Source of the DNA: Octopus vulgaris
Lineage: Eukaryota
Direction of reading: 5' to 3'
Assembly: GCA_951406725.2 (NCBI GenBank)
Contig: OX597815.1
Location: 142,910,001-142,974,000 of the forward strand
Length of the DNA stretch: 64,000 nt
The position numbers and the translations under genes were made by a program. How positions within the stretch are numbered: position 1 is the first letter of the stretch; each line of letters opens with the position of its first letter. Below the pieces are notes generated by a model, which worked only from the letters and a program-made list of their open reading frames with translations, was not told the origin of the DNA and made no database searches. Positions 683 through 62,244 of this stretch are shown in pieces.

Positions 683-683
<1 letters not shown>

Positions 684-1154
684 ACGGGAAGCTTTATGAA
701 AATAAACAAAAGACGAAGGCAGGTGGAAAACAAACGAACAATTGTATTAGTATGGCGCTCAGGAAATATAAATAAAACAAGTCTTTAACGTTTCGAGCCT
801 ACGCTCTTCAACAGAAAGATACACAGAGAGAAAAACACAGAAAGAAGGAGAGAAAAAAATGCGTGCAGTAGCTAACGAATCAACATGGCGATCTGATTTC
901 GGCCAGAGGTCAAAGATCAAACATGAGACGCGAGAGCGAAATAAGGGGAGATAATAGGGTTGATAAATGGGTTGAGGGACCAGCTAAAAGTGCGTGGGAG
1001 GGGTCTGGATGTGTGTATGTATAGGATTGGTGTATGTATTAGTATGTATAATGGTGTGTGTGTGTGTGTGTGTGTGTATGAGAGAGTATTAGTGCGTAAG
1101 ATTGGTCTGGACGTGCGTATGTATGGGGTTGGTGTATGTATTAGTATGTATTAG

Positions 1155-1160
<6 letters not shown>
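683..1160 (-). mobile_element. PLE-derived pseudo-LTR element (family A) inserted in (TA)n
   Basis: Flanked by (TA)n and carries an HHR-like motif at 782-819. Segment 683-786 recurs nearly identically (reverse complement) at 55584-55686 and in diverged form at 7237-7330. Confidence 0.65.
782..819 (-). ncRNA. Minimal type-I hammerhead-like motif (A6U core variant)
   Basis: Minus strand reads UCUUU CUGUUGA A GAGC-GUAG-GCUC GAA AC GU U AAAGA: 5-bp stem I, 4-bp stem II, palindromic ACGU stem III. Confidence 0.6.
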
Positions 1161-7236: not shown

Positions 7237-7330
7237 AGGGAGAGTTTACGAAAAAACAAAAGACGAAGACAGGTGGTGTACAAAACAAACAGATGTATTA
7301 GTATAACGCTCAGGAACAGAAAGAGTCTTT
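7237..7330 (-). mobile_element. ~95-nt mini-element of family A in (TA)n
   Basis: Homologous to 683-786 (aacaaaagacgaagrcaggtgg, tgtattagtat, cgctcaggaa, agtcttt). TA tracts on both sides. Confidence 0.75.
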
Positions 7331-9030: not shown

Positions 9031-9292
<262 letters not shown>

Positions 9293-28291: not shown

Positions 28292-28340
<49 letters not shown>

Positions 28341-28480
28341 CCCTAATACTGGTTTGGACTTTAGCTGCTCCTTCTAGCATGAAAGGAATCCTATGAAGGA
28401 TGCATCTTATGTGTTTAACTGTACACTGTATTTATATGAATAATATATATATATATTTATATATATATACGTTTATATAT

Positions 28481-32792: not shown

Positions 32793-32877
32793 TCGAGGTA
32801 ATAAAGATTTTAGAATCTTCTACTACCAGTGGCCTAGCGTACAAAAAATTAGTCAATAGACGAAATATTATTCATAT

Positions 32878-33090
32878 AAAATACAGTGTACATTAAAACA
32901 CATTAAGAGGCTTCTATCATAGGAATCCTTTACGTTAGAACAGTTAAAGTCCAAACGACTAATTAGGGATACATTTTTGAAGGGAAGGAAAAATAAAACA
33001 TTTACCATCTAATTCCTGGACCATGGTTTCTGACTTATTTTAGTAAATAAAATTATTATTTACAAGGCGAAGTCTTCATCAACAGGGACG
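32878..33090 (-). mobile_element. PLE terminal fragment (family F) with HHR
   Basis: atacagtgtacatt.aaacaca...tagggata...catt.taccatcta..tcctggacca is shared with 58801-59000. Confidence 0.7.
33015..33086 (-). ncRNA. Type-I hammerhead (C3U variant)
   Basis: CCUG UUGAUGA a GACUU..AAGUC a GAA AC CAUG GU C CAGG. Confidence 0.65.
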
Positions 33091-54969: not shown

Positions 54970-55022
54970 TCATTATTTAGTTTTATTTCAGGACTTCTTG
55001 CCAATAGAGGAAGATCCAGTTT
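54970..55022 (-). mobile_element. Short copy of family B next to (TATG)n
   Basis: Reverse complement aaactggatcttcctctattggcaagaagtcctgaaataaaactaaataa matches 61198-61246. Confidence 0.65.
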
Positions 55023-55519
55023 GTATGTATGTATTCATGCATGTATGTATGTATGACTATTTTATTCCTAATTACGTGATTTATTCCCCTGAAGAAGGAG
55101 CTGCCTTCTAACAAAGATACAGAGCTCCATCGTTGGAATGTAGATAACTAAAAGAATGTCACATTTTAAACTTGAAAAATACTTGCATATTTTTACTATT
55201 CTACTTACAGAATATATTTGTAATGTGCGAGTTACATGGCTGTTTTTTTCTGAAAACCCAAACTTATCTAGATTACCAGTTAGGCTCACAAAATAAAGTG
55301 CACCAATTAGTATTGGTATCAATGTGAAATTATAATCTGGATATAGAATCTGAAGGTTTCGAAACAGTTGTAGAAAGTTATCCTTCTTCTCTAATTCTTA
55401 AAGAGATGTTCACGTCAGCCGGACAGCCAACTTTTCTGACAGTACATATATTTTCATATACGTCCCAAAAATGTGTATGTGTACGCGAGCGTGTGTGTTG
55501 GTATGACTATATGTATGCG

Positions 55520-55583
<64 letters not shown>

Positions 55584-55587
<4 letters not shown>

Positions 55588-55684
55588 ACTTGTTTTATTT
55601 ATATTCCTGAGCGCCATACTAATGCAATTGTTTGTTTGTATTCCACCTGCCTTCGTCTTTTGTTTATTTTCATAAAGCTTCCCG

Positions 55685-55686
<2 letters not shown>
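55584..55686 (+). mobile_element. 103-nt mini-element of family A in (TA)n
   Basis: Near-identical reverse complement of 683-786, with pure (TA)n on both sides. Confidence 0.85.
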
Positions 55687-58725: not shown

Positions 58726-58800
<75 letters not shown>

Positions 58801-58803
<3 letters not shown>

Positions 58804-59310
58804 ATACAGTGTACATTTAAACACATAAGGACTCTATAACCACAAAATTAGGGATAAAATTCGGCAGGAACGAAATGAAAAATAAAAACATTTTACCATC
58901 TAGTTTCCTGGACCAATTGGTTTCTGATTTTAGTTTAGCGAGTAAATGAATAACATATACACTCGCCAGGTGAAATCGTCTTCAGCAGGAACACGAGGCG
59001 ATCAAACTAAGTGCCCCTTGTTTATACATCCTAACCTTTTCAAAATCTACTGCGCAGCCGCAGTCCTTCGCCAGCAATTTAAAGATGCCAACTTTTAAAA
59101 ACCGAAAATAATCCAAAAACTTACAATATTTAATCATATCAAAGGGAAATGGAAATTAATTAAAATTTACATTTCCAAAAGACTATGTATTTGTCATAAG
59201 ATACAGTGTACATTAAAACACATAAGTAATTCACTCATAGGATTCAACACGCTAGAAAGAACAGCTAGGTTCTATAACCACAAAATTAGGGATAAAATTC
59301 GACAGGAATT
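58801..59310 (-). mobile_element. PLE-derived partial tandem element (family F) in (TA)n
   Basis: The terminal segment 58801-58870 is repeated directly at 59198-59310. Canonical HHR between them; (TA)n on both sides. Confidence 0.8.
58905..58991 (-). ncRNA. Type-I hammerhead ribozyme, canonical core
   Basis: UUCCUG CUGAAGA c GAUUU..GCGAGU..ACUCGC..AAAUC a GAA ACC AAUU GGU C CAGGAA: 6-bp stem I, extended stem II, GUC triplet. Confidence 0.85.
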
Positions 59311-61138: not shown

Positions 61139-61246
61139 AAAAAATACCCAGTTGTTGATGTTGAAATTCCAATGAAGGAACCTTGGATCTAGGTTAGAAA
61201 CCGGTTCTTTCTCTATTAGCAAGAAATCTTGAAATAAACTGAATAA
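61139..61246 (+). mobile_element. (CATA)n-associated mini-element (family B) with HHR-like scaffold
   Basis: CCAAUGA agg AACC..GGUU a GAA AC CG GU U, with palindromic ACCGGU; it follows a long (CATA)n. Confidence 0.65.
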
Positions 61247-62244
61247 GGACATAGACAGTCAGGCAGAGAGACAGGCAGACAGAGAGACAGGCAGACATAC
61301 ATATAGATAGAGAGACAGAGATATGCATACGTGTTATAGCTTCAACAATTGGTTTAATTAGTCAAAGACACCACAAGAGCGACATTTATATCACTTCAAT
61401 CCTAATTGAATCTTAAAAGAGGCCAAACAAGGTACCTATTTTTAACTTAAATATATTCCTACACGAATATAACTTTTAATTCGCTTCCTAAAGAAAATTG
61501 TTTCCTGCATTTTCCGGAACTTTTCATTGGGTTAAATAATTACCATTTCATTCATAAACGAAACCTTAAGAGAAACTTCTCTTATAAGTGTTACCGTTAA
61601 TGGTCTCGGGAAGTAAGATTTTGTTTTACTTGTTGTTGTTGTTGGTGCTGGTGGTAGGTGTGGTGGTAGGTGTGGTGGTGGTGGCATCGGCGGCGGCGGT
61701 ACTAAAGTTCGTGGTCGAGGGTGTGAATATTACATAAAAACTGTAGAAAAGCTGAAAGATTTCTGTTATTTAGAAAGATCGATGACCCATATGAGACTGT
61801 CTATTGGATTATCGCTGACCATTCTCCTTAATTGGTGTCTTTCGTGGTCACGGATTCAAAAACTACTGAAGAAAAACTATAATAACATAAGAGAAAAAAA
61901 ACCTAGATCGAATAAACAACTGGAAAATAACTGAGAGAAAATTTAAATCAATTGGCTATGTGATTTGAAGAAAGTTCTTGTATAAGTTATGCATTATATT
62001 CACAATTTGATGGTAATTTAGGAATTCACATAGTTGTGCGCGCACTAATTTGATAGAATTTGCTGGAGAGATTCAGTTTATTTTGGCACAGAACCAACTT
62101 GGGAATATAGGTCCTAGGAACCAGTCATTGTTTGGAGCTAACGCAAAGATTCTGGTGTTTCGTATCATTGTTTAATTCTTGGAAATTTAAGCCAATACTA
62201 GATTGAAAGTCTATTATAATTATGTTAACAGATTTAACTACGTG

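Follow-up and report, generated by a model that had tools for sequence, protein, structure and literature searches.

The 103-nt insert at positions 55584-55686 of the window, the 64,000-nt stretch of Octopus vulgaris DNA that was analysed, is probably a 5'-truncated pseudo-LTR (pLTR) of a Penelope-like element (PLE), the start of which was set by an early stop of the reverse transcriptase (RT) together with a one- or two-base A/T match, while RNA cut by the hammerhead ribozyme would have given a small minority of the templates. What was observed, and what this explanation builds on, is the identity of the family, the fixed 3' end (CCCGTT), the TA target and the 5' ends, which are spread and biased towards microhomology. 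The two short inserts of the window that begin at the predicted cleavage site (Table 1) are themselves likely to be ordinary 5'-truncated PLE ends.

Table 1. Features of the window discussed in the text (position 0 is the first A of AAAGAC, just 3' of the predicted cut)
Feature	Positions	Strand	Description
Short family-A insert (GUA subtype)	55584-55686	+	103 nt; 5'-truncated PLE pLTR 3' end (probable); locus L036 in the genome-wide set
Older family-A copy	7237-7330	-	94 nt; first bases AAAGAC, preceded by TATAC
Long family-A copy (GUU subtype)	683-1155	-	3' UTR repeats and PLE pLTR, 5'-truncated and set in (TA)n; approximate at its upstream end
Short copy of sister family B	9133-9231	+	starts at +6 of family B's own cut
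Minimal hammerhead motif (type I); cleavage predicted between 787 and 786	782-819	-	A6U core (CUGUUGA), 4-bp stem II, palindromic ACGU for stem III
Main start region, ~95-115 nt upstream of the cut, around ATCGCCATG	880-900	-	52 of 100 copies begin at -120 to -91
Other short repeat family 1	54970-55024, 61198-61249
Other short repeat family 2	59196-59310, 58799-58870, 28336-28435, 32876-32903

The insert at 55584-55686 is found between two TA runs, with AAAGAC as its first and CCCGTT as its last bases, and matches the segment 786-683 in 101 of 104 alignment columns. The nearest relatives of the older copy, L075 and L182 (~93.5% identity), have the core CUGUAGA with GUA at the cut and both read GTA|AAAGAC, which indicates that the older copy started exactly at the bond, without a shared base (no microhomology). 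The first-pass annotation was thus right that both short copies begin at AAAGAC, the predicted hammerhead product. Its view of them as a segment of the long copy is correct at the level of family A but not of the subtype, since the long copy has GUU at the cut and both short ones have GUA. Three further short copies (at 9133, 54970 and 59198) had been put forward as counterexamples. The first does start off its cut, but none of the three belongs to family A: 9133 is a member of sister family B, and the other two are unrelated repeats, whose BLAST matches (8 for 54970, 9 for 59198) lack an upstream hammerhead. The three copies therefore do not test family A. That two of the three family-A copies in the window start at the cut has a p of ~5e-5 given the genome rate of ~0.4% (see below), for a pattern that was noticed post hoc.

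On the evidence of its sequence, the family A repeat is the 3' pLTR of a Neptune/Nematis-type EN+ PLE, and its earlier identification as a PLE pseudo-LTR was confirmed by copies that run into RT/GIY-YIG coding sequence. In the 2.8-Gb assembly, 6651 exact occurrences of a 28-mer from the 3' segment were counted. Two long copies, L003 and L009, to which the long copy of the window is ~95% identical over ~540 nt, extend into the GIY-YIG coding end, and of 100 copies sampled, 13 are long and of the GUU subtype. The locus L126 is a full partial tandem, made up of an upstream 3'-end copy with a hammerhead, ATATAT, a 5' UTR, the ORF, a second hammerhead-bearing end and (TA)n; as is characteristic of a pLTR, the 3' end is repeated upstream of the ORF, with a hammerhead in both. 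The upstream pLTR of this tandem, the one example found, does not begin at the cut. The ORF (L126:3303-6662) is an uninterrupted stop-to-stop frame of 1119 residues, in which RT is followed by the linker CSRPRCRTC and GIY-YIG. The RT matches Pfam RVT_1 with an E-value of 1.4e-7, which passes the cut-off; the GIY-YIG matches (E 0.0065 in L126, E 0.00038 in L003) do not reach Pfam's cut-off, and the YIGQTG motif is visible. The sequence CSRPRCRTC, present in both L126 and L003, is a CX2-5CxxC linker between RT and EN, as defined for PLEs (PMC8557442). The fact that the frame is uninterrupted over 1119 residues in the tandem copy suggests that the family is young, and it is possibly still active. 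A contig (X13) from a sequencing run that we guess to be RNA spans the pLTR-UTR junction (L126:2716-2928), which is a weak hint.

The element shares with the Neptune/Nematis PLEs (Craig et al. 2021, PMC8557442) a single ORF with RT and then a C-terminal GIY-YIG, the CX2-5CxxC linker, a partial-tandem pLTR with a hammerhead, heavy 5' truncation and microsatellite targeting. In our set 5' truncation is frequent as well, in that 78 of 100 anchor-chosen copies have a start that lies no further upstream of the cut than 120 nt. Unlike the Neptune/Nematis PLEs, as far as the sections available of that paper describe them, the family A hammerhead has U at position 6; the assignment is made by features and leaves Neptune and Nematis undivided. 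At the 5' junction of L003 an inverted piece of the element's 3' end is found (L003:104-140), and such an adjacent inverted 3' piece is a layout known from PLEs (PMC8557442). In L126 an inverted copy of the locus's own flank (L126:1940-2130) lies just upstream of the element.

The hammerhead motif reads, on the minus strand from 819 to 782, UCUUU, CUGUUGA, A, GAGC, GUAG, GCUC and GAAACGUU|AAAGA. UCUUU and AAAGA make up stem I, GAGC and GCUC the 4 bp of stem II, and the palindromic ACGU would form stem III in a dimer; an extra base lies between A9 and G10.1. Family A thus has the minimal type I layout (stems I and II, the extra base after A9, a palindromic stem III and an NUH triplet). It departs from the consensus core (C3 U4 G5 A6 N7 G8 A9 ... 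G12 A13 A14) at position 6, which is U in 84 of 87 family-A copies and gives the A6U core CUGUUGA. C3, U4 and G5 are retained in 83-84 of these 87 copies; G8 and A9 were demanded by the search pattern with which the set was collected. Variation is concentrated at N7 (U 59, C 21, A 5, G 2) and H17 (A 60, U 26, G 1), the two free positions, and one stem I pair is altered on both sides between families A and B (C-G vs G-C, 5 cells), probably by a single event. Because the variation is found at these free positions and a stem I pair covaries, we take the first annotation to be sound in both its hammerhead assignment and the cut that it places between 787 and 786.

In the hammerhead alignment A2 (12 rows, of which x_L004 is the wrong region and was scored as gaps), the stems pair in 88.9% of 99 cells over 11 informative rows, against 20-51% in slid controls. 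Contigs from other sequencing runs share just ~779-818 with the query and differ on both sides (loose contig ends), which marks the motif as the conserved part among relatives. No pile-up of starts or ends is seen in the contigs, nor would contigs reveal one. An Rfam scan gave no hammerhead among 107 matches at E<=1, only microsatellite-driven matches of the miRNA type. The predicted monomer fold is weak, with z -2.17 for 782-819 and -0.49 for 775-830, and differs from the catalytic one. The dimer of lowest predicted energy (-26.8 kcal/mol) likewise differs from the catalytic dimer (-13.7), which does not bear on activity.

The motif resembles the min-HHRs of metazoan PLEs (Cervera and de la Pena 2014, PMC4209133) in its type I layout, short helix I, extra nucleotide between 9 and 10.1, G10.1-C11.1 pair and palindromic 15.2-16.2, in the occurrence mostly as solo copies from truncated PLEs and in the predicted action as a dimer. 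It differs in helix II, which has 4 bp in family A and 7-8 bp in the schistosome min-HHRs, and in the A6U fixed in family A, as the available part of that paper gives a U3-A8 core variant and not A6U (PMC4209133). A natural A6C core has been reported to be slow but active, with a kobs below 0.1 per min (PMC3088659). A literature search for A6U with hammerhead or Penelope, which covered main texts, gave no such paper among the matches listed (25 of 48); supplements may list core variants or breakpoint data. Lunse, Weinberg and Breaker are said to have described PLE hammerhead variants that cleave as dimers, reportedly with core variants, and A6U may be in print there.

Where the copies of family A begin was determined for the first 100 listed places of the downstream 28-mer, all in the first 40 Mb of one contig and including one duplicate pair (L094/L095). 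Of these anchor-chosen copies, 22 start beyond -130, 52 at -120 to -91 and 14 at -90 to -34. Starts within the hammerhead (2) and from +7 to +39 (8) are few, and no copy begins at 0 to +2. In the remaining two (L127 and L077) internal deletions between short pyrimidine matches remove the hammerhead. The whole hammerhead is spanned by 88 of the 100 copies and the bond is crossed by 90. Starts at the cut thus number 0 in 100 in this sample, with an upper 95% bound of ~3%. About 15 of 100 family-A copies start at -109/-110, in the region around ATCGCCATG, which is likely to lie near the transcript 5' end in the pLTR. We take CGCCAT to resemble a YY1 site and CTTCCGG an ETS site. The hammerhead itself has a trough-like appearance, with 2 ends in 33 nt vs 14 in 57 nt upstream (p 0.07) and 8 in 48 nt downstream (p 0.22).

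Genome-wide, 35 of 46 matches are direct, TA-joined AAAGAC starters. Scaling these 35 by the fraction that carries the 28-mer (12/30) and by the fraction of junctions that are TA-adjacent (53/100) gives an estimate of ~0.4% of copies that start with AAAGAC. Among L031-L060, 18 TA|AAAGAC copies were typed by haplotype count; they fall into 5 downstream haplotype classes, which are also found in long copies, and their flanks differ. All 5 classes are present among the 100 anchor-chosen copies, so that by this count the starters do not form a lineage of their own with private mutations. They are repeated independent truncations.

These observations bear on the proposal of the first-pass annotation that a tiny unit retrotransposes on its own. 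That the 100-nt segment is an independent non-autonomous mini-element, amplifying from its own copies, could be imagined from the two examples in one window and from the 35 TA-joined starters, yet a fixed 5' end common to a sizeable set of copies was not found (0 of 100 in the anchor-chosen sample, ~0.4% genome-wide), the typed starters share their haplotype classes with the other copies, the segment has no evident promoter, starts are about as frequent at neighbouring positions and the most frequent junctions are at sites of TA microhomology. We regard such an element as highly improbable. The inserts also differ from the animal non-LTR retrozymes (bioRxiv 10.64898/2026.07.22.740005), which share with them that they are short non-coding repeats related to a hammerhead and have been proposed to be mobilised by PLEs. 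As described in the part of that preprint available, retrozymes are tandem units that each have a hammerhead, whereas the inserts are single, hold just the 3' strand of stem I and are colinear with the 3' end of an autonomous PLE.

The junctions of short, (TA)n-joined copies of family A were tallied mostly by hand, for TA-adjacent junctions only and with repeated rows for one locus merged. With a uniform anchor, covering C1 to C6:84.8 Mb (74 in range from 100 of 232 matches, and 100 of 355), the counts among the matches listed in successive 5-nt bins from -22 to +17 are 11, 14, 5, 14, ~20, 26, 19 and 32, the fifth being the bin of the cut. Among these matches the bin of the cut exceeds those upstream (p 0.022) but not those downstream (p 0.35), two of the three being higher. 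The top positions among the matches listed are +16 (22; TATAT match), -15 (12; TA match), +6 (12) and +7 (9). An even spread of 5' breakpoints without a peak at AAAGAC had been named as the outcome that would speak against the first proposal, and about half of this was found by pattern search: the breakpoints are spread without a dominant peak at AAAGAC, but the spread is not perfectly even.

At the bond itself, three close-anchor patterns were searched genome-wide (46 of 46, 100 of 104 and 100 of 112 matches listed); the +2 class falls outside these patterns. In the GUA subtype, 9 direct TATAT|AAAGAC joins at 0 (with the copy of the window removed) compare, among the matches listed, with 2, 5, 4, 1, 0, 0, 2, 1, 4, 1, 3 and 4 at 12 other positions with a one-base match, an excess over the mean of 2.25 (p 0.0013). 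If the A run at -7, which is the best-matched control, is taken instead, 9 compares with 4 (p 0.27) among the matches listed. TA-matched joins among the matches listed number 18 (-1) vs 12 (-15) in the GUU subtype (p 0.36) and 7 (-2) vs 10 (-15) in the GUA subtype; pooled, the bond has 34 vs 26 for the controls (p 0.37), and family A has a step of 13 vs 8 at its cut (p 0.38). Some joins at the bond follow a C without any match, as in the copy at 7237 and, for example, in L270 and L273. The excess at the bond is thus modest, dependent on the control and without a dominant peak. The possibility that the starters of the GUA subtype were GUU copies with a TA match was ruled out, since the subtype split is dependable: the base at the cut agrees with the downstream marker in 67 of 69 copies.

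At some junctions the start is stuttered. AAAGACTT(GTT) is repeated, with TA in between, four times in L060 and three times in L041, and all 6 genome-wide matches to the 11-nt junction duplication are short copies. The unit present 2-4 times at these junctions is made up of a TA run and the element's first 6-16 bases, and the repetition is probably due to slippage or re-priming. That they record an RT repeatedly running off a cut end was rejected: L043 repeats its own +1 start twice and L063 its own +2 start twice, so starts that are not at the cut repeat alike, which fits duplication of an existing junction.

Sister family B, the long copies of which have an A6 core, in some with C at position 4, displays a much clearer pattern. 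Its junctions were counted among the matches listed (100 of 108), 98 loci being re-read by script. Among these, 20 direct joins are found at -1/0, 5 at +1 and 27 at +2, and the controls at -5, -6 and -7 (the three A positions of GAAA) have 2, 5 and 3; the step at the cut is therefore 52 vs 10 (p 6e-8). This strong step shows that something at the hammerhead does shape the ends of the copies. The commonest TA junction among the matches listed is +2/+3 (27), above the bond (20; a TA match in most subtypes), and a second anchor gives, further downstream, a rate that is higher and roughly flat (among the matches listed, 100 of 197 and 100 of 333). The difference in step between families A and B is not significant (p 0.06-0.14). 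Unselected copies of family B (n = 18) have their start upstream of the hammerhead in 15 cases, for the most part near -105 to -130, and downstream of it in 3; its interior holds no start. When family B is split by the triplet at the cut, the step seems stronger for GUC (25 vs 2, against 36 vs 22; p 0.004), but this was set aside, as it derives from two reference copies, one duplicated pair and one other.

The step in family B could reflect a cut minority of templates, and the +2 peak and the trough fit RT stalling or suppression of junctions equally. It is possible, though doubtful, that the inserts were made from hammerhead-cut RNA, a minority of the pLTR-ORF transcripts being cleaved (as a dimer and perhaps with the help of a protein) and the RT running off the cut end. 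The template would then be the long 3' product and not a free 100-nt RNA, with the RT priming ~100 nt downstream. Such an origin would agree with the excess at the bond in the GUA subtype and with an excess of similar, non-significant size in the GUU subtype, both among the matches listed, with the step of family B, and with the variation at N7 and H17, where G at H17 in 1 of 87 copies is as expected with selection for a working ribozyme. In addition, the hammerhead of Poseidon from Anolis carolinensis (PAc) cleaves in the presence of its protein (PMC11167929). The best-matched and pooled controls among the matches listed and the weak step of family A argue against it, as does the difference between A and B, which does not reach significance. 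Moreover, the most frequent class of family B among the matches listed is +2 and not the bond, +1 having just 5, and 88 of 100 copies read through the site.

Alternatively, the folded hammerhead might shape the ends without scission, either because the RT stalls at the 3' strand of stem I (0 to +3/+4) or because junctions are suppressed in the GC-rich fold. The peak of family B at +2/+3, where its stem I of 4 bp has its 3' edge, and the trough in the anchor-chosen set would fit this. Stem I is weak, however, with 4-5 mostly A-U pairs, family A has no clear peak at +4/+5, and stalling predicts no excess at the exact bond; we therefore consider this reading improbable.

Early stopping of the RT with TA-matched joining, the explanation that we prefer, would proceed as follows. 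By analogy with PAc, the transcript would start in the upstream pLTR, ~110-130 nt before the cut, and read into the ORF. The element's endonuclease would nick (TA)n, and the RT would prime internally on the pLTR-ORF read-through RNA, the priming site being the ATATAT just after CCCGTT, ~100 nt 3' of the cut. Copying would then proceed upstream across the uncut hammerhead towards the transcript start, which would yield solo pLTRs of ~210 nt. Most copies would end 90-120 nt beyond the cut and some would stop sooner, where the end of the cDNA pairs with TA. A cut transcript with the usual priming would give an insert of ~100 nt, and the product need not be a free small RNA. Plain truncation does not readily account for the excess at the GUA bond, for a cut bin above the upstream bins, for the joins after C without a match and for the step in family B.

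A similar route has been described for PAc (Frangieh et al. 2024, PMC11167929), where, according to the sections available of that report, hammerhead mutants did not alter insertion in vitro, the substrate was predominantly unprocessed RNA, RT started at an internal site and the cut was not the first base of any RNA-seq read. The prevalence of uncut RNA and the need of the protein for cleavage in PAc match the picture in family A. PAc and family A share an AT-rich target, an internal RT start downstream of the pLTR hammerhead and, for family A by inference, uncut RNA as the main template (PMC11167929). The start site of PAc, however, is inside the ORF and is not homologous to the target (PMC11167929), whereas in L126 the 3' end of family A is followed directly by an ATATAT with a match to the (TA)n target, and the first ATG comes ~670 nt later.

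The function of PLE hammerheads has been called unclear (PMC8557442), and cutting was found to be dispensable in vitro for PAc (PMC11167929). The thousands of truncated copies constitute a free readout of hammerhead cutting by PLEs in vivo. The great majority of the insertions were copied across an intact or religated site, in agreement with the in vitro result for PAc. The step in the A6 family and the small excess in the A6U family offer a direct test of partial cleavage. On a tentative reading, the 5' junctions of these PLE families would record germline ribozyme cleavage, with a cut minority still serving as template and leaving a small spike and a step at the bond, the step being marked in the A6 family and also present, though weaker, in the A6U family. 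If so, the hammerhead with A6U, which is fixed across several subfamilies, would be a naturally occurring variant that cuts slowly in vivo. The earlier suggestion that the insertions are fossil evidence for in vivo cleavage by CUGUUGA retains the small junction excess at the bond; as evidence it is weak, since it is the A6 sister family alone that has a clear step at the cut. Follow-up would be worthwhile for the step in family B and for the A6U core, which is fixed.

Some further observations concern family B and the neighbouring repeats. The starts of family B cluster about as far from the cut as those of family A, just downstream of the pyrimidine-rich CTTCCGG. A second non-consensus core, CCGACGA (U4C), is found in the family-B copies L006, L086, L099, L100, L106, L111 and L127, several of them with GUC. 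The two other short repeat families of Table 1, each with several copies in the examined DNA, have no hammerhead upstream and are not family A. Finally, an element at 484-655 on the plus strand, in which motifs like the A- and B-boxes were recognised by eye and which is presumably a tRNA-like SINE, adjoins the TA run of the long copy, and similar text flanks L001.
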